Positions 7,585-64,000 are shown, counted from the stretch's first letter. The stretch is DNA of 64,000 nucleotides from Desulfarculia bacterium (GCA_963662445.1 OY759590.1:3520249-3584248); one strand, 5' to 3'. The notes: generated by a model not told the origin, from the letters alone. A program made the numbers and translations.

Positions 7585-8466
7585 TTACAGGTTTTCAATG
7601 GACCGGCGCCACGGGCACAGGAACTTTTCCAGATAACTTACGCCCATGGTGGTAATCCAGGCCACGATAGCTATGATAACCATGCCGCCGATAACCAGGG
7701 CCGGATCGGAAAGTTTCATACCGCGGATGATGATCCATCCCATTCCAGACCGGGCGCTGACCAGTTCGGCTGCAAGCACGCATGTCCAGGCCGAAGACAG
7801 GGATATCTGAAGACCGGCGAAGATGGCCGGAAAAGACGCGGGAAAACTCACCTGGAAAATTTCGTCCTGACGGTTGCCGCCGAGAACCCTGACAACGTCG
7901 TAAAGCTCGGGTTCAATAAGCCTGACACCGTTGTAAGCGTTGAGCAGGCAAGGCACGAACGTTCCGATAACAATGATGAAAACCTTGGAACCTTCACCGA
8001 TGCCGAACCACAGAATCGCTATGGATATCCAGGCGATAGGCGGCATGGGCTTGAATATGTCGAAAACAGGCTTGACAATGGCGTTGACGTACCGGTTCAG
8101 GGCCATGAACAATCCCAGGGGGATAGCGAAGGCCGAGGCCAGCGTGAAGCCGATGAGGATGCGGCGCGTACTGGCCCAGATATGTCCCCAGAGAGTCAGG
8201 CCGGCCAGCTTTGTGTCGGCCATGTGCTTCATCTTGTCCAGCACTTCAAAAGGCGTGGCCAACGAACTGCCAAGAATCTGAGCCTTGGCCACAATGTGCC
8301 AGATAACAAAGAAGGAAACCATGGAAACGCCATAAAGAAAATATTCGTTGCCGAGTATACGCCCTATGGTAATCGGCTTTTTCTCTTTTGTTTCCTTGAC
8401 TATTTCATTGGCGATGGAACTGTCGCCGCCGACTTTTCCCGCCGTATTCTGATCAACGGAACTCAA
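7585..8466 (-). CDS. ABC transporter permease (NitT/TauT family)
   Basis: Polytopic membrane protein of the binding-protein-dependent inner-membrane component type ('LAAELVSARSGMGWII'). Confidence 0.9.
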   Translation of the reverse strand: MSSVDQNTAGKVGGDSSIANEIVKETKEKKPITIGRILGNEYFLYGVSMVSFFVIWHIVAKAQILGSSLATPFEVLDKMKHMADTKLAGLTLWGHIWASTRRILIGFTLASAFAIPLGLFMALNRYVNAIVKPVFDIFKPMPPIAWISIAILWFGIGEGSKVFIIVIGTFVPCLLNAYNGVRLIEPELYDVVRVLGGNRQDEIFQVSFPASFPAIFAGLQISLSSAWTCVLAAELVSARSGMGWIIIRGMKLSDPALVIGGMVIIAIVAWITTMGVSYLEKFLCPWRRSIENL

Positions 8467-8471
8467 GGTCC

Positions 8472-9266
8472 TTACCTCCTTATACCGGCCAGGAGTTTTC
8501 TTTCCACCCGGTCGATGACGACGCCGATCACGGCGCCTGCGATGCCCACGCTAACCATGCCCAACACAACCATGTCAGGCAAGGCGAGCCGCCGGCCCAT
8601 GGTGATAAGGAAACCCAGACCCTGGTCAGCCGCCAAAAGTTCCGCGCCGACCAGATTGACCCAGCAATAGGCCAAGGCTATCTGAAGCGCACCGAAGACC
8701 ATGGGCAGAGACGAGGGAACACAGACCTTGGTGAATATCTGCCAGTTAGTCGCGCCGTAAGTCTTGGCCATCTGAATGAAAGTCGGGTTGGTCATTTTCA
8801 CGCCCACGTAAGCATTGATTACGCAGGGAACAATGCCAGCGATCCAGATGATGAAAATCTTTCCGGGTATACCAATTCCGAACCAGAAAATGGTCAATGG
8901 AATCCAGGCAATGGGGGGAATTGGCCGAATCATTTCAAATATAGGTCTGGTCAAGCCTCTGACGATCTTGAACCATCCCATGAACAGTCCCAAAGGCAGT
9001 CCGACCAGCAGAGCCAGCAGGTATCCGGTGAAAGCCTCCTGGACGCTGACCCAGGCGTGCTGAGCCAGCACGGCCCCGTCGGGATTCGGGTCTGTCAATT
9101 TCACGATAAATAGTTTTACCACCTGAGATGGGGCTGCCAGCATGGTGCTCGGAACAATTCCCGAATCCACCAGGAACTCCCAAATTCCGAAAAACGCCAC
9201 GACACTCAATATGGGCAGTATCTTCAAGCTCAGGGGCGTTGTTCTTTTTACTTCCTCGTACGCCAT
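8472..9266 (-). CDS. ABC transporter permease (NitT/TauT family)
   Basis: Paralogous to 7585..8466 ('LVGAELLAADQGLGFLI'). It starts 5 nt upstream of that gene on the same strand. Confidence 0.9.
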   Translation of the reverse strand: MAYEEVKRTTPLSLKILPILSVVAFFGIWEFLVDSGIVPSTMLAAPSQVVKLFIVKLTDPNPDGAVLAQHAWVSVQEAFTGYLLALLVGLPLGLFMGWFKIVRGLTRPIFEMIRPIPPIAWIPLTIFWFGIGIPGKIFIIWIAGIVPCVINAYVGVKMTNPTFIQMAKTYGATNWQIFTKVCVPSSLPMVFGALQIALAYCWVNLVGAELLAADQGLGFLITMGRRLALPDMVVLGMVSVGIAGAVIGVVIDRVERKLLAGIRR

Positions 9267-9493: not shown

Positions 9494-10570
9494 TTACTTC
9501 CAGGAAGGAACTTCACCGACCATCTTGAGATACTTGTCGGTGACGTAACCGGAAGCGTTAACCTTCTTAAGCTCGTCAGCGGTCAGTTTGCCCTGGCCGG
9601 AGAAGAACTCGGCGATAAGGCGCTGCCAACGGGCGGCAGTGCTCTCACCCTTGGACGCGTCGAACAGTTCAAGCTGTTCCGGCAGAGTCCAGACGGGGTG
9701 CTTGTCGATGTCTTTCTTGGCCATGGCGTCGGTCAATTCCATACCGGCCCATTCCTGATAGAACTTCTGGTACAGTTTGACCAAACGTTCGCTGCTGCCC
9801 TCTTCCCGCAGCATGTTCACGCCGCGCAGGTAGATGCGCAGGAACTTGGCAACGGTCTCGGGATTTTCGTTACAGAATTTTTCGTCGCCAACCATGGCGA
9901 TGGTCAGAGCCGCGCCACAGTCCATGGGATCGCCGGCCTTGACCCAGCCTTTGTCTTCGGCAGTGTAGCTGTAAGGAGCCCAGATACAAGCAACGTCGCC
10001 GACGCCGGACTCAAAAGCGGCCATAATGGAAGACTGGTCCATGTGTTTCACAACCACGTCGGCGTCTTTCAGGCCCAGAACCTTGAGCCAGAGAGACATG
10101 GCGTAGTGAACGGAAGACACGGTGGTGACCAGGATGGTTTTCCCTTTGACCAGCTCGGGGGAGCCGAGAACATTCGGGAAATCTTTGTTCCAGCCCTTGA
10201 CCTTGGCGATGGGGCTGTCGGGACGGACAAATACGGTGTTGGCGATTGATTCGTTGTTGCCCTGAGCAATCATCTGGGCGTTGAAACGCAGAGCGCCCAT
10301 GGTCATAGGCACGCCGCCGGTGGCGCCGAGGACCCACTGACGGGCCGGCAGAGCTTCCAACTGGGCCATACCGGAGTCAAAATACAGCAACTCCATGTCC
10401 AGGCCTTCCTGCTTGTCCCAACCCTGCATTTTGGCGTACCAGGGCATGAAAGTTTCATGCTCGGGCATCCAGCAGGTGGGCAATTTCTCAACTGCCATGG
10501 CCGGGCCGAAACTGATCAGCGCCAAAGCGATAGCCAATACGATAACAGTAAAAAACTTAGCCCTCTTCAT
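9494..10570 (-). CDS. ABC transporter substrate-binding protein (NMT1/TauA-like)
   Basis: Signal peptide 'MKRAKFFTVIVLAIALALISFGPAMA'. AAGGAG lies 8 nt before ATG 10570. The gene sits inside the ABC operon. The ORF track extends to 10630. Confidence 0.85.
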   Translation of the reverse strand: MKRAKFFTVIVLAIALALISFGPAMAVEKLPTCWMPEHETFMPWYAKMQGWDKQEGLDMELLYFDSGMAQLEALPARQWVLGATGGVPMTMGALRFNAQMIAQGNNESIANTVFVRPDSPIAKVKGWNKDFPNVLGSPELVKGKTILVTTVSSVHYAMSLWLKVLGLKDADVVVKHMDQSSIMAAFESGVGDVACIWAPYSYTAEDKGWVKAGDPMDCGAALTIAMVGDEKFCNENPETVAKFLRIYLRGVNMLREEGSSERLVKLYQKFYQEWAGMELTDAMAKKDIDKHPVWTLPEQLELFDASKGESTAARWQRLIAEFFSGQGKLTADELKKVNASGYVTDKYLKMVGEVPSWK

Positions 10571-10750
10571 CCTTGTAGCTCCTTTTTTGGATAATGGTTC
10601 ATAAACAAACAACGCTGCTTTTACTACCAACAGGCGATCTCATCGCCTTGGGAAAAAACATAATCGCCGCCTGAACACCTCCTTCGAAATCTGCCATCAA
10701 TTAACTACAAACCACATCGGACCAATTACGCGAGAGCGGAAGATTCTATA

Positions 10751-11503
10751 CTACCACCATCTGATGAGTTCAGTGACTTGTTTACGAATCTCCACGAATT
10801 TAGGATCGATCAGATTTCTGGGCCGGGGCAGGTCCACCACCACCTCGGCTTTGATGTTTGTGGGTTTGTTGCTAAGAACAAGTATTCTCTCGGCGACGTA
10901 AACAGCTTCCTCAATATTGTGCGTGACAAACAGAACAGTACTGTTGAGCTCTTTCCAGAGGCGAACCAGTTCGTCTTCCAGGTAGTAGCGGAGTTTGACG
11001 TCCAACTGCCCGTATGGTTCATCCATGAGCAACAGGTCGGGATTGACGGCGAAAGCCCGGGCCACGGCGATACGCTGAACCATACTGGCCGAAACCTGGT
11101 TTGGGTAAAGCGTCTGGGTGCTGGTCAGGCCGACGAGCTTGAGGATGTTCTCAAGCTTTGCGTCGATTTCTTCCTTGGGCCACCCCTTGACCTCCATGCC
11201 GAAGGCCACGTTTTCCCGGACCGTCCGCCAGGGCAGACAAGTGGGCTCTTGAAATACGAAGGAAATATTGTGTTTCTTGGGATCGGCGACCTCACCGTCT
11301 ATAAAGATGTCGCCTTCGGACGTCGGCATCAATTTGGACAGACAGTTCAGGAAGGTGGTCTTGCCACACCCGGTCGGGCCGACGATGGCCAGGAATTCAC
11401 CTTTCTTGACCGTAAAATTGATTTTGTCCAGCACCACGAGGTCGCCAAACCTCTTGGTCAAGTCCTTAACCTCGATTTTGTCTCTTCTACCTGAATCGCC
11501 CAC
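10751..11503 (-). CDS. ABC transporter ATP-binding protein with degenerate signature motif
   Basis: Walker A 'GPTGCGKTT' and Walker B 'LLLMDEP' are intact. The signature position reads 'VSASMVQR' instead of LSGGxxQR. GTG start preceded by GGAGTG. Confidence 0.9.
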   Translation of the reverse strand: MGDSGRRDKIEVKDLTKRFGDLVVLDKINFTVKKGEFLAIVGPTGCGKTTFLNCLSKLMPTSEGDIFIDGEVADPKKHNISFVFQEPTCLPWRTVRENVAFGMEVKGWPKEEIDAKLENILKLVGLTSTQTLYPNQVSASMVQRIAVARAFAVNPDLLLMDEPYGQLDVKLRYYLEDELVRLWKELNSTVLFVTHNIEEAVYVAERILVLSNKPTNIKAEVVVDLPRPRNLIDPKFVEIRKQVTELIRWW

Positions 11504-53207: not shown

Positions 53208-53779
53208 AGCTTGTTGACGAACATGACCTCGTCCAGCGGCTTCTTGGGCACAAAATGCCTTCCCTGTTCATCCCGCCAGTATCTCACCGTGTCGCCCCGG
53301 TCCACGTAAAGCGGTTCTTCATCCGGGTAGCCCAGGGCCACCACCAGGTCGGGACGCAGGTAATCCGGGAGATGGAAGGTCTCGGTCACGGTCTGCGGAT
53401 TGAAGGAAAGAAGCACGCAGGAAGCCACGCCTTCGGCCAGACCGGCTATGAGCATGTTTTCCACGCTGAAGCCGACGTCGTATTTATAATGCGTGGCCTT
53501 GGCCCTTTCATCGACCAGCACGATGACATAGGCCGCCGGTTCCCGCCCGGCCGGAGGATTACCGGCCGGATTGATGTAGGCCGCCCACCTGAGGGTGGGA
53601 AAGATGATGCCGCGAAGTTCCGGCTCGGTGACCACCAGGTAGCGGAGAGGCTGGAGATTGGCCCCGGTGGGAGCCAGGCGGGCCGCGTCGACCATGCGTT
53701 CCAGCACATCCAGCGGTACCGGTTTGGGCTGAAAACTGCGTACCGAACGGCGGTTCTTCATCAGTTCATGAACATTCAT
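53204..53779 (-). CDS. Nitroreductase family protein
   Basis: 'MKNRRSVRSF' and 'APTGANLQPLRYLVV'. Start ATG 53779 overlaps the upstream stop (ATGA). Confidence 0.8.
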   Translation of the reverse strand: MNVHELMKNRRSVRSFQPKPVPLDVLERMVDAARLAPTGANLQPLRYLVVTEPELRGIIFPTLRWAAYINPAGNPPAGREPAAYVIVLVDERAKATHYKYDVGFSVENMLIAGLAEGVASCVLLSFNPQTVTETFHLPDYLRPDLVVALGYPDEEPLYVDRGDTVRYWRDEQGRHFVPKKPLDEVMFVNKL

Positions 53780-55533
53780 GACATACCTCCCTGAAAAACG
53801 GCCCACAAAAGAGACAGGATTCCGGCCAGGATGAAATTGGCGTCTATCATGGCCTCGGATATGGTCCCCCCGACAATCTGGTCGCGCCGGAACAGGAAAA
53901 GATGAAGGCCGGCGTAAGCGGCGCAGACCAGCAGGACCAGAGCCAGCGACGTGAGCAGCCCGGCGGCCCAGCCGGCGGTCAGGGCCACGGCCAGCACAAG
54001 GACCACCAGCTTGAGCAGATTTATGGTCTTGGCCTCGCCGATGATGATGGGGATGGTTTCCCGCCCGGCTATGCGGTCTCCCTGTATTTCAAAAATATCG
54101 CCAAAGGCGCTGCGGATGAACACCAGCAGAAAACAGATCAGACCGACCACGGCCGTGGACCAGGTCAACTCGCCTTCGGGGGAAAGGGCCGGCACGCAGC
54201 TCAGGGCCAGAGCCCAGCCGCCGGAAAGAAAAAGAGTCTTGGAACTGGGGATGTCCTTCAGACGGCGCAGCCTGATGCGCTTCGCCAGGGAGTGAGGCAC
54301 CAGGGGCACGGCGTACAACAGGCCGAGGGTGCTCATGAAAGCCAGCAGGCTGAAGACTCCCCACCCCAGGGTCAGGCCCAGCAGCAGACCGGCCAGGGCC
54401 GAAAAAATTCCGGAGCTGATAAGAATGTGCCGATAAGTTTCCAGAAACAGGGCCCGGTCCGGGTCGTTGTACTGGCTGGCTTCCTTGTCCAGAAACATAT
54501 TGAGCATATGCATGGCGTGAACATAGAAGAAGGCTACGCCGAAAAAGGCCGGGCGGGGTTCGATCCCCTGAAGCATGGCTGCAGCCAGACAGAGAATACC
54601 GGCCCCCAGGGCCACGAAAAAATTGCTCAGGACCATGTTGCGGAGCAGACGGTGCGCCTTGCCCTTGATGGAAGGATCGCCTTTCTGGGCAAAACGTTCC
54701 AGAGCCCGAAAGAGGCGGATAATCATCCAGTTGGGCGTTGACGCCCCGGCCGTGATGCCCACGGTGCCGACCCCGGCCAGCCAGGCCTGGTCCAGTTCGT
54801 CCTCGGTCTCCACGTGGATGGTCTTGGCCCCTTCCTCCTCGGCCACCGCCGCCAGCCTGGTCGTATTTCCGCTGTTGTGGCCGCCGACTATGACCATGGC
54901 GTCCACTTCACGGGCCAGCCGCCGGGCCTCTTCCTGACGGCGCTGAGTGGCTCCGCAGATGGTGTCGAAAACCAGAGCCTCCGGCCATCGGGTCGTAACA
55001 GCCTTGACGACATCCTCCCACATCTGCTGGTTCTGGGTAGTCTGGGCGACCAGAATGACCTTGTCCCGGTCAGGCAGGGCGGCCACGTCTTCCGGCTTGT
55101 TGAAAGTCAGACCTTTTCCTTCTGAATACCCCAGCAGCCCGACCACTTCGGGGTGATCTGGATTTCCCCAGATTACGGGCGTGTATCCCTTCTCGGCATG
55201 CCTCTTGATAATCATCTGAACCCGGATGACCCGGGGGCAGGTGGCGTCTATAATATCCAGCCCGGTCTCTTCCAGCCTCCGTCTTTCCTCGGGCGGCACG
55301 CCATGGGCGCGAATGATGACCGTGCCCTTTTCCAGGTCATGCAGGTCGGAAGCGCCCGACTGCAGAACGCGCAGACCTTTGTTGCGCAGCAGGTCCAGGG
55401 CCTGGGGGTTGTGGATCAGCGGACCGTAGGAATAGATGGCCCCCGGCCGGTTGTTGACCGCTTCCAGGGCCAGTTCCATGGCCCGGCGGACCCCCATGCA
55501 GAAACCCGAGCTTTTGGCCAGAACGACTTTCAT
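53776..55533 (-). CDS. ispH: 4-hydroxy-3-methylbut-2-enyl diphosphate reductase (IspH/LytB) fused to a C-terminal UbiA-like polytopic membrane domain
   Basis: aa 1-~285 are IspH ('GFCMGVRRA', 'GPLIHNP', 'DATCPRV', 'GGHNSGNT', 'TAGASTP'). aa ~300-585 hold about 8 TM helices with 'FGDIFEIQGDRIAGRETIPI', resembling the second Asp-rich motif of UbiA prenyltransferases. Confidence 0.85.
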   Translation of the reverse strand: MKVVLAKSSGFCMGVRRAMELALEAVNNRPGAIYSYGPLIHNPQALDLLRNKGLRVLQSGASDLHDLEKGTVIIRAHGVPPEERRRLEETGLDIIDATCPRVIRVQMIIKRHAEKGYTPVIWGNPDHPEVVGLLGYSEGKGLTFNKPEDVAALPDRDKVILVAQTTQNQQMWEDVVKAVTTRWPEALVFDTICGATQRRQEEARRLAREVDAMVIVGGHNSGNTTRLAAVAEEEGAKTIHVETEDELDQAWLAGVGTVGITAGASTPNWMIIRLFRALERFAQKGDPSIKGKAHRLLRNMVLSNFFVALGAGILCLAAAMLQGIEPRPAFFGVAFFYVHAMHMLNMFLDKEASQYNDPDRALFLETYRHILISSGIFSALAGLLLGLTLGWGVFSLLAFMSTLGLLYAVPLVPHSLAKRIRLRRLKDIPSSKTLFLSGGWALALSCVPALSPEGELTWSTAVVGLICFLLVFIRSAFGDIFEIQGDRIAGRETIPIIIGEAKTINLLKLVVLVLAVALTAGWAAGLLTSLALVLLVCAAYAGLHLFLFRRDQIVGGTISEAMIDANFILAGILSLLWAVFQGGMS

Positions 55534-56555
55534 GCCACAGCCGCCTTTTCCTCCTGAAAATCGGCCAGCCAGGCGAAGTATTCTTCCAGCTTGGCCACCA
55601 GGACATCAAAATCCTTGACCTGGTTGATCGACTGCCGGAAGGCCGTTGAATTGGGCAGGCCCTTGGTGTACCACATCATGACGCCGCGCAGCATATACAG
55701 AGCCTTGGGCAGGCCGTAGAAATCCCTGAGGGTGAGCGCATGGGTCAGGGCTGTGCGGTATCTCTCTTCCAGCGCCGGTTCGGGAGCCGGGCGTCCGTCC
55801 AGCATGGCCAGAGCCCGCGAAAAAATCCAGGGGTCGCCCATGGCTCCCCGCCCGATCATGATGCCCGCGCACCCCGTCTCCTTGAGCCGGGTCAGGACGT
55901 GCTGAGGCCTGGTCACGTCGCCGCTGCCGATGACGGGCTTCGGGAAGACCTCGGCCAGCCGGGCGACAAAGCTCCAATCAGCCTCGCCGCTGAACGACTG
56001 CACCGCGTACCGGGGATGCAGGGTGACCGCATCCACGCCGCACCCGGCCAGTATGGGAGCCAGTTCCATGATCTCGCCCTCGCCAGGCCGCCAGCCGCAG
56101 CGGGTCTTGACGGTCAGAGGCACGGTCACTTCGCGGCGCACGGCAGTGACGATTTCCTCGATCAGTTTGAAGTCCTTCAGCAAAGCCGCCCCGGCCCCGT
56201 GACGGACGACCTTGCGCGCCGGACAGCCCATGTTCAGGTCGATAACGTCCGCCCCGGCCTCCTGGGCTATGGCCGCTCCACGCACCAGCCAGGAAGGATT
56301 GGCGCCGAAAAGCTGAACCGCCAAGGGGCGTTCCACCGGGTCGGAAGCCATGAGCTTCATGGTCTTGGGACCGCGCTGGCCCATTCCGGCCGCGCTGACC
56401 ATTTCGGTGAAAACCAGGGCCGCGCCCTGTTCCTTGGCCAACAGGCGGAAAGGCAGATTGGTGATGCCGGCCATGGGAGCCAGAATCAACGGATTGTCCA
56501 GGCGCAATGCGCCGATATTGAAACCTGTATCAGTCATATTCCTCAAATCAATCAA
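55530..56555 (-). CDS. dusB: tRNA-dihydrouridine synthase
   Basis: 'LAPMAGITNLPFR', 'DLNMGCP' and 'TVKTRCGW' are Dus motifs. The start is TTG 56555 or ATG 56537. Confidence 0.9.
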   Translation of the reverse strand: MIDLRNMTDTGFNIGALRLDNPLILAPMAGITNLPFRLLAKEQGAALVFTEMVSAAGMGQRGPKTMKLMASDPVERPLAVQLFGANPSWLVRGAAIAQEAGADVIDLNMGCPARKVVRHGAGAALLKDFKLIEEIVTAVRREVTVPLTVKTRCGWRPGEGEIMELAPILAGCGVDAVTLHPRYAVQSFSGEADWSFVARLAEVFPKPVIGSGDVTRPQHVLTRLKETGCAGIMIGRGAMGDPWIFSRALAMLDGRPAPEPALEERYRTALTHALTLRDFYGLPKALYMLRGVMMWYTKGLPNSTAFRQSINQVKDFDVLVAKLEEYFAWLADFQEEKAAVA

Positions 56556-56735
56556 TATTAGACCATCGGGACGCCCAATTCAATCCCGGTCCCGAAAGTC
56601 CTCCCTTCCCCCCGCGGCAGTGCGGGAGCGACATGGTTATATACACCATAAATTCAGGCGGGGCGCGCTAAAAATGCAGGAACGGAGTCTACGCCATTGA
56701 CAAAACCTATGGGGCTTGTCATCATGTGCTTCAAG

Positions 56736-56833
56736 GGAAGTGCCTAGTCACCTGGTGGGGCTCCTGGACTTCAAATCCAGTGGCGGGCGCTGGAAACGTC
56801 CGCGGTGGGTTCGATTCCCATGCACTTCCGCCA
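56736..56833 (+). tRNA. selC: tRNA-Sec (anticodon UCA)
   Basis: 98 nt. 8-bp acceptor stem GGAAGTGC/GCACTTCC. Anticodon stem-loop CTGGA-CTTCAAA-TCCAG. Long variable arm, T-arm GGTTCGATTCC, encoded CCA. Near-colinear with my recollection of E. coli selC. Confidence 0.92.
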
Positions 56834-57322
56834 CAATGATTTCAAGGGGTTAGCCGTCGCTTAACCAATCTAAGCCAAATCGCTCTTTAGCTTATATAAG
56901 TTAAATATCTGGCGAAATCCGGCTTCAAAAGTATCGCAAAAGTATAGCATCCGCCGGACTTACTCCCCTCCCCTTTTCACTCACCATGGACAGGCTATCG
57001 CTCTCCCTGCCCCGCCCAAATATATAAAGAGAAAGCCTTGGCATTTAGGGATCTAATTTAACCCTGTTATCATGAAATTAAGATTGACGGCCTGAAGCCA
57101 GCCAATGCCTTGAACCATCTCCAAAAGCAAGCCACGTTCAAGCCATACTCCGGCACCAGAACGCCTTAACAACAACTCGTTACCTGCATAACCTGCGTGG
57201 GATTAGAGCGTGTCTCAACGAGGTGTTCTCGTACCCCGGATTTAACTGCGCCCCAAAACCACAAGAAGCCGAAATAAGCCCGAAAATCGGCCCCAAATCG
57301 CCCTCTGAATGGTGTAAAAAGC

Positions 57323-57334
57323 TTGACATATAAT
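57323..57334 (+). promoter_or_regulatory. Promoter elements upstream of the AbiEi-like gene
   Basis: TTGACATATAAT is a perfect -35 hexamer abutting a perfect -10 hexamer, so only one can be used with a partner elsewhere. No SD precedes ATG 57358, so the leader may be short or absent. Confidence 0.3.
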
Positions 57335-57357
57335 CCTGATTGTGCACCATATTACAC

Positions 57358-57966
57358 ATGACGGAAAAGCAAACAGAAGAGGACAGGCTTCTTGCTCTGG
57401 CCAAAGAGAAGGGCGTCATCCGGGTGAAGGACCTCAAGGCCGAGGGGATTCACCCGGAGCACCTACGACGCCTAACCAGAAGAGGCTGGCTCACAAAGGT
57501 GGGGAGAGGGCTTTATGTCGACGCTGACAAGGACCTGACGGCCAGCCACTCCCTTGCTCTGGCGAGCAAATGGCTTCCGGATGGAGTGATTTGCCTTCTG
57601 TCAGCTCTTCGTTTCCACGAGCTCGGCACCCAAAACCCTTTTGAAGTGTGGATTGCGCTCGACCGGCGGGCAGCGAAGCCCAAGATTGACCTTCCACCAC
57701 TACGGGTGATGAGGTTTTCCGGCGCTGCACTGACGGAAGGTATTGAGGAGCAGATCATTGAAGGCGTTTCGGTCAAAATGTACACCTCGGCCAAAACCGT
57801 GGCTGACTGCTTCAAATATCGCAACAAAATCGGTCTGGACGTGGCCATAGAGGCTCTGCGGGATTGCCTTCGTCAGCGCAAATGCTCCAATGACGACCTT
57901 TACCGCTTCGCCAAGGTTTGCAGGGTCTGGAATGTGATGCGGCCATACATGGAGGCCCTTGCCTGA
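57358..57966 (+). CDS. AbiEi-family (type IV TA antitoxin-like) transcriptional regulator
   Basis: 'LLALAKEKGVIRVKDLKAEGIHPEHLRRLTRRGWLTKVGRGLYV' is the AbiEi_4-type N-terminal wHTH. The C-terminal 'SALRFHELGTQNPFEVWIAL...' is typical of the family. Confidence 0.75.
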   Translation: MTEKQTEEDRLLALAKEKGVIRVKDLKAEGIHPEHLRRLTRRGWLTKVGRGLYVDADKDLTASHSLALASKWLPDGVICLLSALRFHELGTQNPFEVWIALDRRAAKPKIDLPPLRVMRFSGAALTEGIEEQIIEGVSVKMYTSAKTVADCFKYRNKIGLDVAIEALRDCLRQRKCSNDDLYRFAKVCRVWNVMRPYMEALA

Positions 57967-58059
57967 AGTGGGGGACAGATACTACCAGCCAATTACAGCA
58001 CTCGCCTTGTTCACCCTCTATACATAGCAGCGTAATGTCTTGAAAAAACAACACATTTA

Positions 58060-58088
58060 TTGACAGATTGATTGCTGATGTAATAAAA
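58060..58088 (+). promoter_or_regulatory. Candidate promoter for the DUF3800 gene in an AT-rich spacer
   Basis: TTGACA, 15-17 nt, TAATAAAA. Confidence 0.3.
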
Positions 58089-58156
58089 TAAAGTGTTTTT
58101 CGTGGGGAAGATCTTTTCTGAACAATCGTATACAAGGGGTATTCGTAATAAATATT

Positions 58157-59083
58157 ATGCCTTACGTATACCAACAGATGGGGCCGGATACAGAAAAACC
58201 GCGGCAAGATGCGCCATATCTTGCCTATGCTGATGAGTCTTCCTGGAACACAGGCCGATTCAGAAGTATCGCCCTTGCTACTCTTCAATCGACTGATGCC
58301 GAAGATCTGAGGAACGAGCTTGTCGCTCTCTTGGATGAGTCAAATGTCCAAGAGTTCAAGTGGCAGAAGCTGAAGAAGGCGAAATACAGGTTTCCGGCTA
58401 AAAAACTGGTTGATTTCACTTTCAAGTATTCAGATACAAAACAACTTCGGCTTGACGTACTCACCTGGGATACGCACGACTCTCGACATGAAATCATTGG
58501 ACGTGATGACAATGCCAACCTTGGTCGAATGTACTACCACCTGTTCAGGAGTGTCCTAACAAGGCGGTGGCCGGAAGGAGCGTGTTGGTATCTGTATCCT
58601 GACGAGCACACATCCCTTGATTGGCCCGCAATCAGGCAATGCCTGGAATACAAGGGCATCCAGTTCGACTTGGCAGGCGAACAACAGCAATCCTGGTTTC
58701 GACTGGAAGGAATGAAAGAGCTTTTCAACATTCACGACCTTTGCGAGTGTCGGTCTCATGAAGAGCCCTTCATCCAACTAGCTGACCTTTTCAGTGGTTT
58801 GGCTGCCTACTCATATGAAAGTTATGAGAAATGGTGTTCATGGCGGGATGATTCCCAGATGTGTCTCCCTGGATTTGGCGAGGCTGTAAAGATGAGTAAT
58901 GCGGACTGGGAAAGATGCTGCATACTGAACTACCTGAATAAAAAATGTAAGGCAAGAAGGCTTGGGGTTGCGTTGAACTCCGAAAAAGGCTTATTTTCGC
59001 ATAATCCAGACCAATCACCGAACTTTTGGCGATACGAACCGCAGCACGAGTTGGATAGGGCTCCAACGAAATTTTCTGAATGA
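58157..59083 (+). CDS. DUF3800-like protein
   Basis: 308 aa with lower G+C than its neighbours. The N-terminal 'YLAYADESS' and C-terminal 'FIQLADLFSGLAAY' match the DES / QxAD motif pair I recall for DUF3800. The stop overlaps ATG 59080 of hsdR (ATGA). Confidence 0.6.
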   Translation: MPYVYQQMGPDTEKPRQDAPYLAYADESSWNTGRFRSIALATLQSTDAEDLRNELVALLDESNVQEFKWQKLKKAKYRFPAKKLVDFTFKYSDTKQLRLDVLTWDTHDSRHEIIGRDDNANLGRMYYHLFRSVLTRRWPEGACWYLYPDEHTSLDWPAIRQCLEYKGIQFDLAGEQQQSWFRLEGMKELFNIHDLCECRSHEEPFIQLADLFSGLAAYSYESYEKWCSWRDDSQMCLPGFGEAVKMSNADWERCCILNYLNKKCKARRLGVALNSEKGLFSHNPDQSPNFWRYEPQHELDRAPTKFSE

Positions 59084-61878
59084 ACCATGAGGGCTGGGGG
59101 TATGAGATGACGCCGGAGCAAAAGGCCAGAGCGGCTATTGACCAGCAGCTTGAGCAGTGCGGGTGGCAGGTCCAGGACCACAAATCCATGAACATCATGG
59201 CCGGCCGGGGGGTGGCCATTCGGGAGTTCCCCCTGAAAACCGGTTTCGCCGACTACATGCTTTATGTGGACGGCAAGGCCATCGGCGTGATCGAAGCCAA
59301 ACCCCAAGGCCATACCCTGGTCGGCGTGGAAGCCCAATCCGCCAAATACACATCTGGTCTGCCGGACATGCTGCCGCATTATCATTTGCCCCTACCGTTC
59401 GCCTACGAGTCCACCGGAACCATCACCCAGTTCACCAACGGCCTGGACCCGGCCCCGCGCAGCCGGGAGGTTTTCACCTTCCATCGGCCGGAAGAACTCC
59501 TCCGCCTGGTCAAGCTCGACGGACAGCTCCGGGCCAAGCTCAAGGAACTGCCGCCCCTGAACGAGGAAGGACTCTGGCGGGTCCAGGTGGAGACCATTCT
59601 CAACCTGGAAAAGTCCCTGGCCGAGGCACGGCCCAGAGCCCTCATCCAGATGGCCACCGGCAGCGGCAAGACGTTCACCGCCTGTTCCTTCTGCTACCGG
59701 CTCATCAAGTTCGCCAAGGCCAAGCGTATCCTCTTCCTGGTCGACCGCAACAACCTCGGCAAGCAAGCCTTGACCGAGTTTCAGCAGTACGTCAGCCCTT
59801 ACACCAACTACAAGTTCAGCGAGGAATACAACGTCCAGCGCCTCACCTCGAACGCCATAGACCCGGCCAGCAAGCTGGTCATCACCACGGTTCAGCGGCT
59901 CTATTCCATCCTCAAGGGCGAACCGGCCTTTGAGGAAGAGGCGGAAGAGCGCTCCATGTTCGAAGTCGACTCCCCATTGGCCAAGAAACCCTTGCCGGTG
60001 GTGTACAGCGAGCGCATCCCCATCGAGCATTTCGACTTCATCGTGGTGGACGAATGCCACCGCTCGATTTACAACCTTTGGCGTCAGGTCCTGGAATACT
60101 TCGACGCCGTCCTCATCGGCCTGACCGCCACACCCAGCACCCAGACCATCGGCTTTTTCAACGGCAACGTGGTTCAGGACTACTCCCACGAAAAGGCTGT
60201 GGTCGACGGCGTGAACGTCGGATACGACGTATACGGCATCCGCACGGAAGTCGGCTCGGACGGCGCTACGCTGCTGAAAAAGGCCGGGCGATACGTGCCG
60301 CGCCGGGACCGGCGCACCCGCAAGAAACGCCTGGCCGAACTGGACGACGACCTGACCTATACCGCCAGCCAGCTCGACCGGGACGTGGTCAACCCCAGCC
60401 AAATCCGGTTGGTGATACAGACCTTCCGGGACAAGCTCTTTACCGAAATATTCCCCGGCCGCACCGAAGTCCCCAAAACTCTGGTTTTCGCCAAGACCGA
60501 CCTTCATGCCGACGACATCGTCAAGGTCATCCGGGAGGAGTTCGGCAAAGGCAACGAGTTCTGTCAGAAAATCACCTATCGCACCACCGGCAGGAAGCCG
60601 GACGAACTGCTGAACGAGTTTCGGAACTCCTACCATCCCCGCATCGCCGTGAGCGTGGACATGATTGCCACGGGCACGGACGTCAAGCCCCTGGAATGCC
60701 TGCTGTTCATGCGCAACATCCAATCCGCCTCGTATTTCGAACAGATGAAGGGCCGAGGGACAAGGGTCATCAGCTCCGACGACCTTGGGGCCGTCACGCC
60801 GGACAACAAGCACAAAGTCCGCTTTGTCATCGTGGATGCCGTGGGAGTCTGCGAAAACGACAAGACCAACTCCAAGCCGCTCGACCGCAAGCCGTCCTTT
60901 TCCCTGGACAAGCTGCTCCAGATGGTGGCTCAAGGCGTCGTGCACGCCGATGTGGTTTCGACTCTGGCCGCCAGGCTGGCCCGCCTGAACCAGGAAATAG
61001 ACGAGAAGGACGAAAAGGACATCGCTTCCGAGGCCGGTGGGCGCTCGCTGGCCGATTTGACGGCTAGTTTGCTCGGCAGCATCGACCCGGACAAGACCGA
61101 GGCCAAGGCTCGGGAGATGTATTTCCTTTCGCCCGCTGATGAGCCGGCCGCTGAGCAGCTTGACCAGGCCGAGCAAGCCAACATGACCGAGGCTTTGAAG
61201 CCGTTTCACAACCCCAGGCTCCGGGACCTGCTGGTCAAAATCAAGGCTTCTCTGGAACAGGTCATCGACGAAATCACCCAGGACAAGCTGCTGGCCGCCG
61301 AATTCGACGCCGCAGCCAAAGAGCAGGCCCGTTCCAAGCTGAGCGATTTCCGCAAGTTTCTGGACGATAACAGGGATGAAATCGAGGCCCTTCAGGTCCT
61401 TTACAGCAAGCCGTATCGGCACGGACTGCGCTACGGCCAGCTCAAGGAACTGGCCGCCGCCATCGAACGGCCCCCGCTATCCATTCCCCAGCCGGAAGAC
61501 CGCCTCTGGCGGCTGTACGAGGCCGTGGAGCCGGAAAAGGTCAAGGGGCCGGGCGGCAAAGCTCTGGTTGACTTGATCGCCATCGTGCGGCATGCTCTGA
61601 ATCCCGCCCACCCCCTCACCCCCGTGGCCATGACCGTGGCCGAGCGGTACGAAGAGTGGCTGGCGGAAAAGGAAGCGGAGGGAATCGTGTTCACCCTGGA
61701 GCAGCGCAAATGGCTGGACGCCATCAAAGACCATATCGCCAGCAGCCTGGAAATCAAAACAGACGACTTCGAATACGCGCCGTTCAACAACATGGGCGGC
61801 CTGGGCAAGGTCCATCAGCTTTTTGGCGACCAACTGCCGGCCATCATAGATGAACTGAATGTGAGGTTGGCGGCGTGA
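59080..61878 (+). CDS. hsdR: Type I restriction enzyme R subunit (EcoEI/type IB-like C-terminus)
   Basis: N-terminal 'IDQQLEQCGWQV...ADYMLYVDGKAIGVIEAK'. Helicase motifs 'QMATGSGKTFTA', 'VVDECHRS', 'GLTATP'. EcoEI_R_C-like tail. ATG 59107 is an alternative start. Confidence 0.9.
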   Translation: MNHEGWGYEMTPEQKARAAIDQQLEQCGWQVQDHKSMNIMAGRGVAIREFPLKTGFADYMLYVDGKAIGVIEAKPQGHTLVGVEAQSAKYTSGLPDMLPHYHLPLPFAYESTGTITQFTNGLDPAPRSREVFTFHRPEELLRLVKLDGQLRAKLKELPPLNEEGLWRVQVETILNLEKSLAEARPRALIQMATGSGKTFTACSFCYRLIKFAKAKRILFLVDRNNLGKQALTEFQQYVSPYTNYKFSEEYNVQRLTSNAIDPASKLVITTVQRLYSILKGEPAFEEEAEERSMFEVDSPLAKKPLPVVYSERIPIEHFDFIVVDECHRSIYNLWRQVLEYFDAVLIGLTATPSTQTIGFFNGNVVQDYSHEKAVVDGVNVGYDVYGIRTEVGSDGATLLKKAGRYVPRRDRRTRKKRLAELDDDLTYTASQLDRDVVNPSQIRLVIQTFRDKLFTEIFPGRTEVPKTLVFAKTDLHADDIVKVIREEFGKGNEFCQKITYRTTGRKPDELLNEFRNSYHPRIAVSVDMIATGTDVKPLECLLFMRNIQSASYFEQMKGRGTRVISSDDLGAVTPDNKHKVRFVIVDAVGVCENDKTNSKPLDRKPSFSLDKLLQMVAQGVVHADVVSTLAARLARLNQEIDEKDEKDIASEAGGRSLADLTASLLGSIDPDKTEAKAREMYFLSPADEPAAEQLDQAEQANMTEALKPFHNPRLRDLLVKIKASLEQVIDEITQDKLLAAEFDAAAKEQARSKLSDFRKFLDDNRDEIEALQVLYSKPYRHGLRYGQLKELAAAIERPPLSIPQPEDRLWRLYEAVEPEKVKGPGGKALVDLIAIVRHALNPAHPLTPVAMTVAERYEEWLAEKEAEGIVFTLEQRKWLDAIKDHIASSLEIKTDDFEYAPFNNMGGLGKVHQLFGDQLPAIIDELNVRLAA

Positions 61879-63473
61879 GTAAAATCGGAAGCATTCCCGG
61901 TAGCTGGGAAACACCATGTGTTGAGGATGTTTGTGAAATCATTTCTGGTTATGGGTTCCCCAAAAAACTCCAAGGAAAATCAGTTGGCGACATTCCATTT
62001 TTCAAAGTTGGAGATATCTCGGAAGCGTGGCAAAAGAATAAAGTCGGGCTGGATATAGCAAACCATTACCTCAATTGGCAGGAAATGAAATCATTGAAAG
62101 CCCAGCCTCTACCACCAAACACTGTGGTATTTGCTAAAATCGGCGCTGCTATCGGCCTAAACAGACGAGCCATATTGAAACAACCTTCGTTAGTAGACAA
62201 CAACGTTATGGGTGTTTGGGCAGAATCGAGGTTTCTCAATACGTTTTTTTTGTTCCACTTTTTCTGTACTCTACGATTCGGAGAAAACTCCAGAGCTTCG
62301 ATAGTCCCATCGATACGAAAATCTGATGTTGGCAATGTTCAACTGCCGCTTCCACCTCTGAACGAACAACATCGCATCGTCTCCAAAATCGAAGAGCTCT
62401 TTTCCAAGCTGGATGCGGGAGTGGCCGCCTTGGAGCGGGTCAAGGCCAACCTGAAGCGGTATCGGGCTTCCGTGCTCAAGGCCGCCGTGGAAGGCAAGCT
62501 GACCGAGAAATGGCGGGCCGAGAACCCGGACCGGGAACCGGCTTCCAGGCTTCTCGAACGCATCCTGATTGAGCGCCGCCATAAATGGGAAGAAGAACAA
62601 CTGGCCAACTACCAGGCCAAGGGCCAGAAACCGCCCAAGGACTGGCGCTTCAAATACAAGGAGCCCGCCAAGCCGGACACCGCCGACCTGCCGGACTTGC
62701 CGGAGGGGTGGTGTTGGGCGACTGTGGACCAGATTTCCTGTTTCGTGACAAGCGGGTCTAGAGGTTGGGCTAAGTACTACTCCGAATCCGGCCCACTATT
62801 CATACGAGCCCAGGATATAAATAAAGATTGGCTGGACCTCACCAATATAGCCCACGTAAATGTCCCTGAATCGTCTGAAAAATTCAGAACCAGAACCCAA
62901 CAAGGAGACCTGCTTATTACCATCACGGGAGCGAATGTAACGAAGTCGGCGCTGGTGAGAGACGAAATAGGAGAGGCCTATGTGAGTCAGCACGTGGCGT
63001 TAGTTCATCCCGTAACGAGTATTCTTTTTGACTATGTTTTTCACTGGGTCATTTGTCCATCAAAAGGTCGTAATGAGCTTGAAAAACTGGCTTATGGAGC
63101 GGGAAAACCAGGACTAAACCTCGATAACGTCAGAACCTTATGCGTTGCTTTGCCGCCTAATGAGGAGGCAATAGAAATCGTCAACAGTTTGACCTCCTCG
63201 TTAGAAACGATTGAAAAGACCGAAATAGAAATTCGAAGGAATGCCCTGCGAGCTGCCCGCCTCCGTCAAGCCATCCTCAAACATGCCTTTGAAGGCAAGC
63301 TCGTTCCCCAGGACCCGAGCGACGAACCGGCCGCAAAACTATTGGAGCGCATCCGGGCGGAAAGAGCCAAAGCCGAAGACGCTCCCCAAACTGTAACCCG
63401 CAAGCCCCGCCGCCAAACGGCCCGGGCGAAGACAAGCCGCAACACCGCTGCGGGCCGGAATCCCGTGGAGTAA
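61875..63473 (+). CDS. hsdS: Type I restriction-modification specificity subunit
   Basis: Two lower-G+C target-recognition domains. Each is followed by a conserved helical spacer ('LPPLNEQHRIVSKIEELFSKLD...' and 'LPPNEEAIEIVNSLTSSLE...RQAILKHAFEGKLV'). It overlaps the hsdR stop (GTGA). Confidence 0.9.
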   Translation: MSKIGSIPGSWETPCVEDVCEIISGYGFPKKLQGKSVGDIPFFKVGDISEAWQKNKVGLDIANHYLNWQEMKSLKAQPLPPNTVVFAKIGAAIGLNRRAILKQPSLVDNNVMGVWAESRFLNTFFLFHFFCTLRFGENSRASIVPSIRKSDVGNVQLPLPPLNEQHRIVSKIEELFSKLDAGVAALERVKANLKRYRASVLKAAVEGKLTEKWRAENPDREPASRLLERILIERRHKWEEEQLANYQAKGQKPPKDWRFKYKEPAKPDTADLPDLPEGWCWATVDQISCFVTSGSRGWAKYYSESGPLFIRAQDINKDWLDLTNIAHVNVPESSEKFRTRTQQGDLLITITGANVTKSALVRDEIGEAYVSQHVALVHPVTSILFDYVFHWVICPSKGRNELEKLAYGAGKPGLNLDNVRTLCVALPPNEEAIEIVNSLTSSLETIEKTEIEIRRNALRAARLRQAILKHAFEGKLVPQDPSDEPAAKLLERIRAERAKAEDAPQTVTRKPRRQTARAKTSRNTAAGRNPVE

Positions 63474-63479
63474 TCAATC

Positions 63480-64000
63480 TTGAGCGCCGAAACTCAGAAC
63501 ATAGTCAACCGGGCCTGGAACTTCGCCCACGTCCTGCGGGACGACGGGCTGTCGTACATGGCGTACACCGAACAGATCACCTTTCTGCTGTTTCTGAAGA
63601 TGGCCCACGAACAGACCCAAACGCCCTACAACCGCCAGCCGATTGTGCCGCCGGAGCTGGGCTGGCCGAGTTTATTGGAAAAGGACGGCCAGGAACTTGA
63701 AGTGCATTACCGCCACATTCTGGAAACCCTGGGCCGGGAAAAGGGGATGCTGGGGGAAATCTTCAAGCGGGCCAAGCCGGAGATTCAGAATCCGGCCATC
63801 CTGAAAAAGCTGATCGTGGACCTGATCGACACGGAAAACTGGATGATGATGGAGGCCGACGTCAAGGGCGACATCTATGAAGGGCTGCTGGCCAAGAGCG
63901 CGGCGGAGTCGTCCAAGGGAGCCGGCCAATACTTCACCCCGCGTGAGCTCATCAAGGCCGTCGTGGAGGTCATGCGGCCCGGCCCGGAAGAAACCATCTG
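63480..64000 (+). CDS. hsdM: Type I restriction-modification methyltransferase subunit, N-terminal part (3' end outside window)
   Basis: TTG 63480 opens a frame that runs to the window edge. HsdM_N motifs 'LRDDGLSYMAYTEQITFLLFLKM' and 'GDIYEGLL', then 'GQYFTPRELI'. It is absent from the ORF track because no stop falls within the window. Confidence 0.85.
   Translation, partial: MSAETQNIVNRAWNFAHVLRDDGLSYMAYTEQITFLLFLKMAHEQTQTPYNRQPIVPPELGWPSLLEKDGQELEVHYRHILETLGREKGMLGEIFKRAKPEIQNPAILKKLIVDLIDTENWMMMEADVKGDIYEGLLAKSAAESSKGAGQYFTPRELIKAVVEVMRPGPEETI

Follow-up and report, generated by a model that had tools for sequence, protein, structure and literature searches.

A single-gene DUF3800 subfamily recurrently placed in type I restriction-modification operons: a candidate additional anti-phage nuclease

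In the EcoprrI locus the gene prrC lies between hsdS and hsdR of a type I restriction-modification (R-M) system. The embedding of PrrC in type I hsd loci has been described (PMC12707154) and a guilt-by-embedding screen reports PrrC as almost exclusively embedded (Payne et al. 2024, bioRxiv 10.1101/2024.01.29.577857). According to the same study, genes embedded in type I R-M, bacteriophage exclusion (BREX) and DISARM systems are frequently defence genes, and PDC-M04, a two-gene candidate cassette (FAM_00014>>FAM_00043), is one product of that screen. The protein family DUF3800 is also described in defence loci, where it supplies the effector domain in retron type VII (PMC7736814) and, in CRISPR V-A2 and VI-F loci, an accessory nuclease with an RNase H fold (PMC10910872, PMC12669027, bioRxiv 10.64898/2026.01.16.699850), and eleven orphan RNA motifs, named DUF3800-I to -XI, are associated with it (Weinberg et al. 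2017, PMC5737381). Extra defence genes in R-M operons, and DUF3800 as a defence-linked RNase H-fold nuclease, are therefore already in the literature. Here we describe a DUF3800 gene at positions 58157-59083 of a 64,000-nucleotide stretch of DNA from a Desulfarculia bacterium (GCA_963662445.1, OY759590.1:3520249-3584248), referred to below as the window, where it directly precedes hsdR, hsdS and hsdM. It is a new, uncatalogued member both of the defence-linked DUF3800 nucleases and of the cargo genes embedded in R-M operons. A first-pass annotation of the window had supposed that DUF3800 was assigned to no named defence system; the retron VII and CRISPR V-A2/VI-F reports, together with a partial match to the PDC-M04A profile, show otherwise, and a wholly undescribed link between DUF3800 and defence cannot be claimed. 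The present analysis adds a clearly bounded subfamily of single-gene type, so far uncatalogued and about 490 clusters in size, with a confident structural model and intact catalytic residues, and a reproducible hsdS-DUF3800-hsdR placement over many bacterial and archaeal phyla. Among 15 of the 18 papers matched by full-text searches for DUF3800, no title or abstract describes an R-M-embedded DUF3800 subfamily or an activity assay.

The 308-amino-acid open reading frame (ORF) matches the Pfam DUF3800 profile (PF12686) with 30.8 bits against a cut-off of 21, over residues 22-218 and profile positions 1-148 of 149, and no other Pfam family is matched by the protein. The same profile is matched by 24 of 29 subfamily members. 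The motif pair YADES...IQLADLFSG, from which the first-pass annotation had proposed the family, is present as described (YLAYADESSW, residues 21-30, and FIQLADLFSGL, residues 205-215), and the profile match bears out the family assignment itself. A search of 5.8 billion proteins gave 172 homologues of about 300 amino acids with 36-49% identity, plus one identical copy, while a profile search of 1.84 billion cluster representatives (50%-identity clusters) gave 921 matches at E<=1e-3 and 490 at E<=1e-30. There was no match when the PDB was searched by sequence with the family profile, and none to the DUF3800 protein when phage genomes were searched by tblastn. Judged by these comparisons, the window protein is an intact member of a distinct, moderately sized DUF3800 subfamily of proteins about 300 amino acids long.

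In an alignment of 120 sequences the invariant or near-invariant residues are D26, E27, E66, D100, D105, D108, R110, H111, D117, D118, D149, Q207 and D210, and the window protein keeps every one of them. The DE motif (D26-E27) and the QxxD motif (Q207-x-x-D210) are conserved in at least 90% of the 120 homologues, and a further conserved motif, NFWxYxPQxxxDxAP, is found in the C-terminal part, past the end of the Pfam domain near residue 218. An AlphaFold2 model generated from the family alignment has a mean predicted local distance difference test (pLDDT) score of 90.8 and a predicted template-modelling score (pTM) of 0.88. When the model was compared with the PDB using Foldseek, RNase HII (1eke, E 6.7e-5) and human RNase H2A (3puf) were ranked first, followed by RNase HI entries. 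The first-pass annotation had proposed structure prediction as a means of finding a nuclease or hydrolase fold, and the fold obtained is indeed RNase H2-like, with modest template-modelling (TM) scores of about 0.41-0.54 to the RNase H2 templates. Among viral models (BFVD) the top match was a DUF3800 protein from a phage metagenome, and RNase H and resolvase folds came next. This result agrees with the published descriptions of DUF3800, which give it an RNase H or RNase H2-like fold whose catalytic set is altered (PMC7736814, PMC10910872, PMC12669027). The protein is predicted to be a nuclease that depends on metal and has RNA or RNA/DNA hybrids as its substrate.

The neighbourhoods of related genes were sampled by scanning one genome per GTDB species, which returned 53 loci (loci are cited below by L numbers). 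ORFs were called, neighbours were clustered, and six-frame translations were searched with hidden Markov models (HMMs) of the three largest clusters, whose representatives were identified with Pfam as HsdS (Methylase_S), HsdM (HsdM_N+N6_Mtase) and HsdR (HSDR_N+SWI2_SNF2+T1RH-like_C). The lineages represented include Chloroflexota, Acidobacteriota, Nitrospirota, Planctomycetota, Cyanobacteria and Actinomycetota, the candidate phyla radiation (CPR) lineages Saccharibacteria and Gracilibacteria, and Methanothrix, Methanoregula and Hadesarchaea. A same-strand hsd gene (hsdS, hsdM or hsdR) stands beside the DUF3800 gene in 26 of the 53 loci. By a rough estimate, well under 2% of random genes would have an hsd gene within a few kb, and the association with R-M genes is thus far beyond chance; the enrichment beside hsdR, hsdM and hsdS for which the first-pass annotation had proposed a survey is clearly present. 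Neighbours of the HsdS cluster (n=17) are mostly at position -1 and those of the HsdR cluster (n=13) mostly at +1 or +2, the dominant order being hsdM-(cargo)-hsdS-DUF3800-(cargo)-hsdR. A 4-nt overlap of hsdS with the DUF3800 start is frequent, and at the other end the DUF3800 stop runs into or directly adjoins hsdR in several loci. The position directly upstream of hsdR is common to the window and many relatives (L004, L007, L009, L021 and L022 among them). In the complete genome of Chloroflexus aggregans (CP001337, L057, 4479-13695), where the genes were called independently, the order is hsdM-MNT-HepT-hsdS-DUF3800-small ORFs-hsdR, with a 4-nt overlap of hsdS and DUF3800 and an MNT-HepT toxin-antitoxin pair between hsdM and hsdS. 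The hsdS-DUF3800-hsdR placement recurs across many bacterial and archaeal phyla, and comparative genomics gives strong support to the linkage with R-M.

About 9 further loci of the 53 flank other R-M or BREX systems. The gene is found directly 3' of type ISP enzymes (L032, L034, L035), and directly 3' of brxL in a PglX-PglZ-BrxL BREX cluster (L027). It also follows SNF2-methylase-ResIII clusters in L043, L051 and Leptolyngbya L059, and type IIG-like methylase-nucleases in L048 and on the Methanothermobacter plasmid pRMAS01; in L041 it adjoins an Mrr-type nuclease. In Thermomicrobium roseum a DUF3800 copy is beside a DUF499/DUF1156/PLD cluster annotated as anti-phage, which we take to be Hma-like. 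In 14 of the 53 loci no R-M gene was found nearby and the flanks are mostly housekeeping genes.

Several individual loci deserve mention. In C. aggregans the hsdR gene is cut by an IS110 transposase gene; L058, a Logan assembly from a sample related to L057, is without the IS110 gene, yet gene calling splits its hsdR into three consecutive ORFs. Homologues with 35-38% identity are present on small Methanothermobacter plasmids (pFZ1, NC_001336 and pRMAS01). That of pFZ1 (NC_001337, L054) is at 2101-2955, in a record which also holds a type II R-M pair; the related plasmid record NC_001336 also encodes a DUF3800 homologue; and that of pRMAS01 (L056) is at 8282-9052, directly after the gene for a 956-amino-acid N-6 DNA methylase. 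Two metagenome-assembled genomes (MAGs), assigned to Syntrophales and Planctomycetes (L021 and L022), both have hsdM-cargo-hsdS-DUF3800-hsdR with equal gene lengths and spacing, a 39-nt offset and identical HMM E-values, a likeness which may reflect either a very recent transfer or an artefact of binning or contamination. In a Zixibacteria MAG (L013) a transfer-messenger RNA (tmRNA) gene at 9550-9906 is followed after about 70 nt by a DUF3800 homologue (9980-10909) without an R-M neighbour.

The features of the window around the gene are as follows.

56697-56725: promoter-like TTGACA-17-CATCAT found in a promoter scan, belonging to the tRNA-Sec gene
56736..56829 (+): selenocysteine tRNA (tRNA-Sec) gene, Rfam RF01852, 73.6 bits, E 3e-13, at the upstream edge of an island of lower G+C
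57340..57966 (+): orphan abiEi (AbiE antitoxin/transcription regulator), Pfam AbiEi_4 E 4.9e-15, PADLOC AbiEi E 2.4e-85 over the full length
57967..58156 (+): AT-rich intergenic spacer of 190 nt, G+C 0.368, likely operon promoter
58157..59083 (+): DUF3800-subfamily gene, 308 amino acids, Pfam PF12686, predicted RNase H2-like nuclease with acidic motifs intact
59107..61878 (+): hsdR, type I restriction subunit of EcoAI/EcoEI type by Pfam and NCBIfam, in an ORF open from ATG 59080
61875..63473 (+): hsdS, specificity subunit, Pfam Methylase_S in two stretches, PADLOC Specificity_I E 9e-96
63480..64000 (+): hsdM, 5' part only because the window ends, likely start TTG 63480

All three genes of a type I R-M system are thus present, the hsdM fragment reaching the window end. 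HsdR contains the Pfam domains ResIII (E 2e-37), EcoEI_R_C (E 1e-32) and Helicase_C, and matches the NCBIfam PRK11448 and EcoAI-type models with scores below their curated cut-offs. The translation of the hsdM fragment, SILSAETQNIVNRAWNFAHVLRDDG..., matches the HsdM profile built from the related loci (E 3e-11). The hsdR and hsdS genes overlap by 4 nt (the hsdS start is a GTG), and hsdS and hsdM are separated by 6 nt. The junction of DUF3800 and hsdR is either a 23-nt gap or a 4-nt overlap, depending on whether hsdR starts at 59107 or 59080. The first-pass annotation had the two genes translationally coupled through an ATGA. The DUF3800 stop (TGA 59081-59083) does overlap an ATG (59080-59082); as the hsdR start, however, that ATG is not favoured. 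Homology to HsdR proteins starts at residues 11-13 of the 932-amino-acid ORF in 9 of the 12 tblastn matches listed out of 62 matching plasmid records, and position 8 of the NCBIfam EcoAI-type profile is aligned to residue 17, which puts profile position 1 at residue 10, ie at ATG 59107. A GGGGG run is found 6 nt 5' of 59107, and nothing resembling a Shine-Dalgarno sequence is found upstream of 59080. From these three indications the true hsdR start is probably ATG 59107, 23 nt past the DUF3800 stop, and the coupling was probably proposed from the wrong start. The start of the DUF3800 gene is itself ambiguous, 58157 (308 amino acids) or 58178 (301 amino acids), because the database copy (P0001, 100% identical, 301 amino acids) begins at ATG 58178.

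A start at 59107 had been paired, in the first-pass annotation, with an independent hsdR promoter as the arrangement which would speak against linkage of the two genes. The start is as just described, but a simple sigma-70-like scan gave no promoter-like site between the genes and no independent hsdR promoter inside the DUF3800 gene. A weak terminator-like hairpin at 59050-59067 is not above shuffle expectation. Since there is no promoter-like site between them and the junctions are tight, DUF3800 and hsdR probably belong to one operon, and DUF3800-hsdR-hsdS-hsdM is probably a single four-gene operon driven from the spacer promoter with DUF3800 in the promoter-proximal position. The AT-rich spacer of 190 nt with its own TTGACA element was correctly described; TTGACA-18-TAAAAT at 58060-58089 agrees with the consensus at 11 of 12 positions. 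The number of promoter-like sites in the region (3 found, 2.4 expected from shuffles) is not above that of shuffles.

Compared with the described systems, the window protein falls outside PDC-M04, retron type VII and PrrC. The PADLOC profile PDC-M04A is matched with E 4e-11 and 40.7 bits, residues 24-135 being aligned to profile positions 8-120 of 232, and 27 of the 29 subfamily members match it (best E 1.4e-12). These matches are weak and partial, in the N-terminal half, and the window protein gave no full-length match to PDC-M04 component A. No PDC-M04B partner was found among the scanned neighbours, and the window gene is flanked by AbiEi and HsdR only. PDC-M04, itself a candidate, therefore shares with the window subfamily homology of the N-terminal half and embedding in a type I R-M/BREX/DISARM-type context, whereas the window subfamily is single-gene and remotely related. 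A conserved second gene of the PDC-M04B kind was considered and rejected because the neighbouring cargo is heterogeneous. Besides the MNT-HepT pair of C. aggregans, other cargo in these operons consists of Fic/SoFic, PDC-S04, PDC-S02 (Mrr_cat), PDC-S05 (ORF6N), Abi_C, an OLD/Gabija-like ATPase-TOPRIM protein and a Schlafen/AlbA-HATPase-wHTH protein, placed between hsdM, hsdS, DUF3800 and hsdR (L001, L002/L003, L016, L024, L025, L036). R-M operons with such cargo act as multi-cargo defence platforms.

With the DUF3800 proteins of retron VII and CRISPR loci the window protein has in common the Pfam match, the DE and QxxD motifs and the defence-locus setting, and with the retron-linked proteins also the PDB templates, 1eke and 3puf, reported by Mestre et al. 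(PMC7736814). The Q of QxxD, absent from the retron-linked proteins according to that report, is kept in the window subfamily, in which NFWxYxPQxxxDxAP also forms a conserved C-terminal extension past the Pfam domain. The settings differ. The window is without a reverse transcriptase, non-coding RNA, Cas gene or TPR domain, and the partner is an R-M operon; no reverse transcriptase or retron non-coding RNA is adjacent to the gene, whose neighbours are AbiEi, HsdR, HsdS and HsdM.

As in the case of the DUF3800 RNA motifs, a DUF3800-family gene is preceded by an intergenic region. Unlike in that case, no motif was found. None of the Rfam DUF3800-associated RNA motifs matched in 56500-59400, either at gathering score or at E<=10, or near 20 related loci, and the Rfam scan of the window gave no RNA family besides tRNA-Sec. 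The spacer is unstructured, its RNA fold (z-score +1.37) being no more stable than those of shuffles. A structured RNA or riboswitch in the 190-nt spacer was rejected on the absence of an Rfam match, on the z-score and because relatives are mostly without a spacer; in most of them hsdS and the DUF3800 gene overlap, so that a leader RNA would have no space between them.

The likeness to PrrC is in position. A nuclease-type gene is contiguous with a type I hsd operon, being its first gene in the window and standing in many loci between hsdS and hsdR, the usual slot of the family. In the window, though, the gene precedes hsdR-hsdS-hsdM and is not nested as prrC is. PrrC combines an ABC-ATPase with an anticodon-nuclease domain, whereas the DUF3800 protein is RNase H-like and no ATPase or anticodon-nuclease domain was found in it.

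Pairwise divergences of DUF3800 proteins are correlated with those of the HsdR (Mantel r 0.59, p 0.002), HsdM (r 0.64, p 0.0002) and HsdS (r 0.52, p 0.0008) encoded beside them, compared with r 0.99 for HsdR against HsdM; the values may be inflated by the phylogeny that the organisms share. On average, DUF3800, HsdR and HsdM have diverged to a similar extent. The correlations indicate that the DUF3800 gene travels with the operons in the long term, yet is exchanged more often than the core subunits. The visibly lower G+C of the gene, to which the first-pass annotation drew attention, was confirmed: 0.478 (0.51 at third codon positions, GC3), compared with 0.602 for hsdR (GC3 0.81), 0.588 for the hsdM fragment and 0.571 for the whole window. 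All 21 of 21 loci compared have a lower G+C in this gene than in its hsdR neighbour (mean -10.5 points), and all 16 of 16 a lower G+C than in hsdM, which makes the offset a family trait and no sign of something recent in this genome. It could stem from frequent exchange, from selection for low expression or from silencing.

We lean towards the view, by a little more than an even balance, that the gene encodes an autonomous single-gene nuclease effector, co-expressed and co-transferred with hsdRSM as a second layer of defence. The starting points are what was observed, namely family membership, fold, acidic residues, operon packing and the association with R-M across phyla. In bacteria and archaea alike the subfamily is a recurrent passenger embedded in methylation-based defence operons, and its product would be a self-contained single-protein nuclease cutting RNA or RNA/DNA-hybrid substrates; co-expression and co-transfer with the restriction system would then provide a second, independent anti-phage layer. 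We take the effector to be autonomous because it has no fixed partner, occurs in many kinds of host operon and is able to stand alone. Nuclease activity, substrate and a role in phage defence are inferred. A number of points weigh against this view. The TM-scores to the RNase H2 templates are modest, the catalytic site of DUF3800 is rearranged according to published analyses (PMC10910872), and no demonstrated activity was found in the literature for any DUF3800 protein, those of this subfamily included. The window HsdR is of the EcoEI_R_C type and is undetected by the HsdR profile of the other loci, the window order DUF3800-hsdR-hsdS-hsdM is absent from the 53 comparison loci, and co-transcription with hsdR is suggested by spacing and a simple sigma-70 scan only. 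The apparently solitary copies stand mostly among housekeeping genes, not in defence islands, which is compatible with a non-defence or selfish role. With these points in mind the gene is a credible extra anti-phage candidate and not a new kind of system. It is a clean experimental candidate, though no surprise to specialists, and a small single-gene member beside a well-understood R-M system is the simplest place to learn the substrate and the switch of DUF3800.

A different function, raised in the first-pass annotation as a guard role towards HsdR, would be that of a guardian in the manner of PrrC, in which the nuclease is kept inactive by the restriction complex or its activity and is freed, leading to abortive infection, when a phage anti-restriction protein such as a DNA mimic or Stp-like peptide disables the complex. 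We think this unlikely. The usual hsdS-X-hsdR slot is that of prrC in EcoprrI, start and stop codons overlap with hsdS and hsdR in many loci, and the partial co-divergence with HsdR and HsdM would also be accommodated. The protein, however, has no PrrC-like ATPase or sensor domain, DUF3800 being its sole Pfam match, and it occurs with at least six mechanistically different partner systems and two unrelated HsdR families, which argues against one specific protein-protein contact. Moreover, 14 of 53 loci are without an R-M neighbour, whereas PrrC is almost exclusively embedded. Both type I R-M and BREX are inhibited by the DNA-mimic anti-restriction protein Ocr, and both are among the neighbour systems, so that a shared trigger is conceivable; with such a trigger, for instance a DNA-mimic anti-restriction protein, a guardian could be squared with the solitary copies and with partners of many kinds, but this is pure speculation. 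The broadest form of the idea, to which we attach a somewhat lower probability still, is a pan-R-M guardian in bacteria and archaea, an analogue of PrrC unrelated to it in fold, which would monitor type I, ISP, IIG, BREX and Hma systems and release an RNase H-like activity upon anti-restriction. If true, DUF3800 nucleases would be one effector chassis curbed by structured RNAs, retron msDNA (multicopy single-stranded DNA), Cas effectors or R-M complexes.

The gene might instead be a selfish or neutral hitch-hiker, a low-G+C cassette gene, possibly a toxin or addiction gene, which would enter R-M operons by insertion or recombination and gain co-transfer without contributing to phage defence. 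The G+C offset from hsdR and hsdM in every locus compared is what would be expected of it, as are the solitary copies among housekeeping genes and the pseudogenised copies or neighbouring hsdR genes in L015, L025, L050-L053 and L057. Copies are also found beside tRNA-Sec (window) and tmRNA (L013), and tRNA and tmRNA genes are classic integration sites of islands. Nevertheless we regard a hitch-hiker as improbable. No transposase, inverted repeat or integrase is consistently linked to the gene, conservation of the catalytic residues is strong throughout the roughly 490 50%-identity clusters, and the divergence of the gene, which is correlated with that of its hsd neighbours and of about the same size, is consistent with its having been kept by selection over long periods. 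The predicted RNase H2-like fold, the tight linkage directly upstream of hsdR (the window and the five loci named above) and the partial co-divergence with hsd genes could also be those of an auxiliary restriction enzyme, which would remove R-loops or RNA-DNA hybrids that block HsdR translocation or, in another form, degrade those replication intermediates of phages, RNA-primed or hybrid, which escape cleavage by the R-M enzyme. Either form seems to us very improbable. To our knowledge most type I R-M systems are without such a gene, which cannot then be required by the restriction enzyme, and members of the family are found by themselves as well as beside systems that are unrelated or do not translocate. 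Furthermore, the role described for related DUF3800 proteins in retron and CRISPR loci is that of an effector or accessory module and not of a translocase helper (PMC7736814, PMC12669027). The autonomous effector is the reading we retain.

Just downstream of tRNA-Sec the G+C falls from about 0.65 to about 0.50, and because of this drop right after the tRNA gene the abiEi/DUF3800/hsdRSM block looks like an island integrated at tRNA-Sec. The abiEi gene is not part of an AbiE toxin-antitoxin pair, as there is no AbiEii-sized ORF between 56830 and 58156 and the next gene is DUF3800; the spacer and the DUF3800 gene occupy the slot after abiEi in which abiEii usually stands. A search beside the 53 related loci gave no AbiEi homologue, and the possibility that AbiEi is a conserved partner of the DUF3800 protein, or its antitoxin, was rejected on that ground. 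Since AbiEi is not recurrent beside family members, the missing abiEii looks like a local loss or replacement. Elsewhere in the window, a 585-amino-acid ORF at 53776-55533 (-) resembles IspH/LytB at its start (MKVVLAKSSGFCMGVRRA...), has a long C-terminal half that is hydrophobic and membrane-like, and appears to be an unusual fusion.

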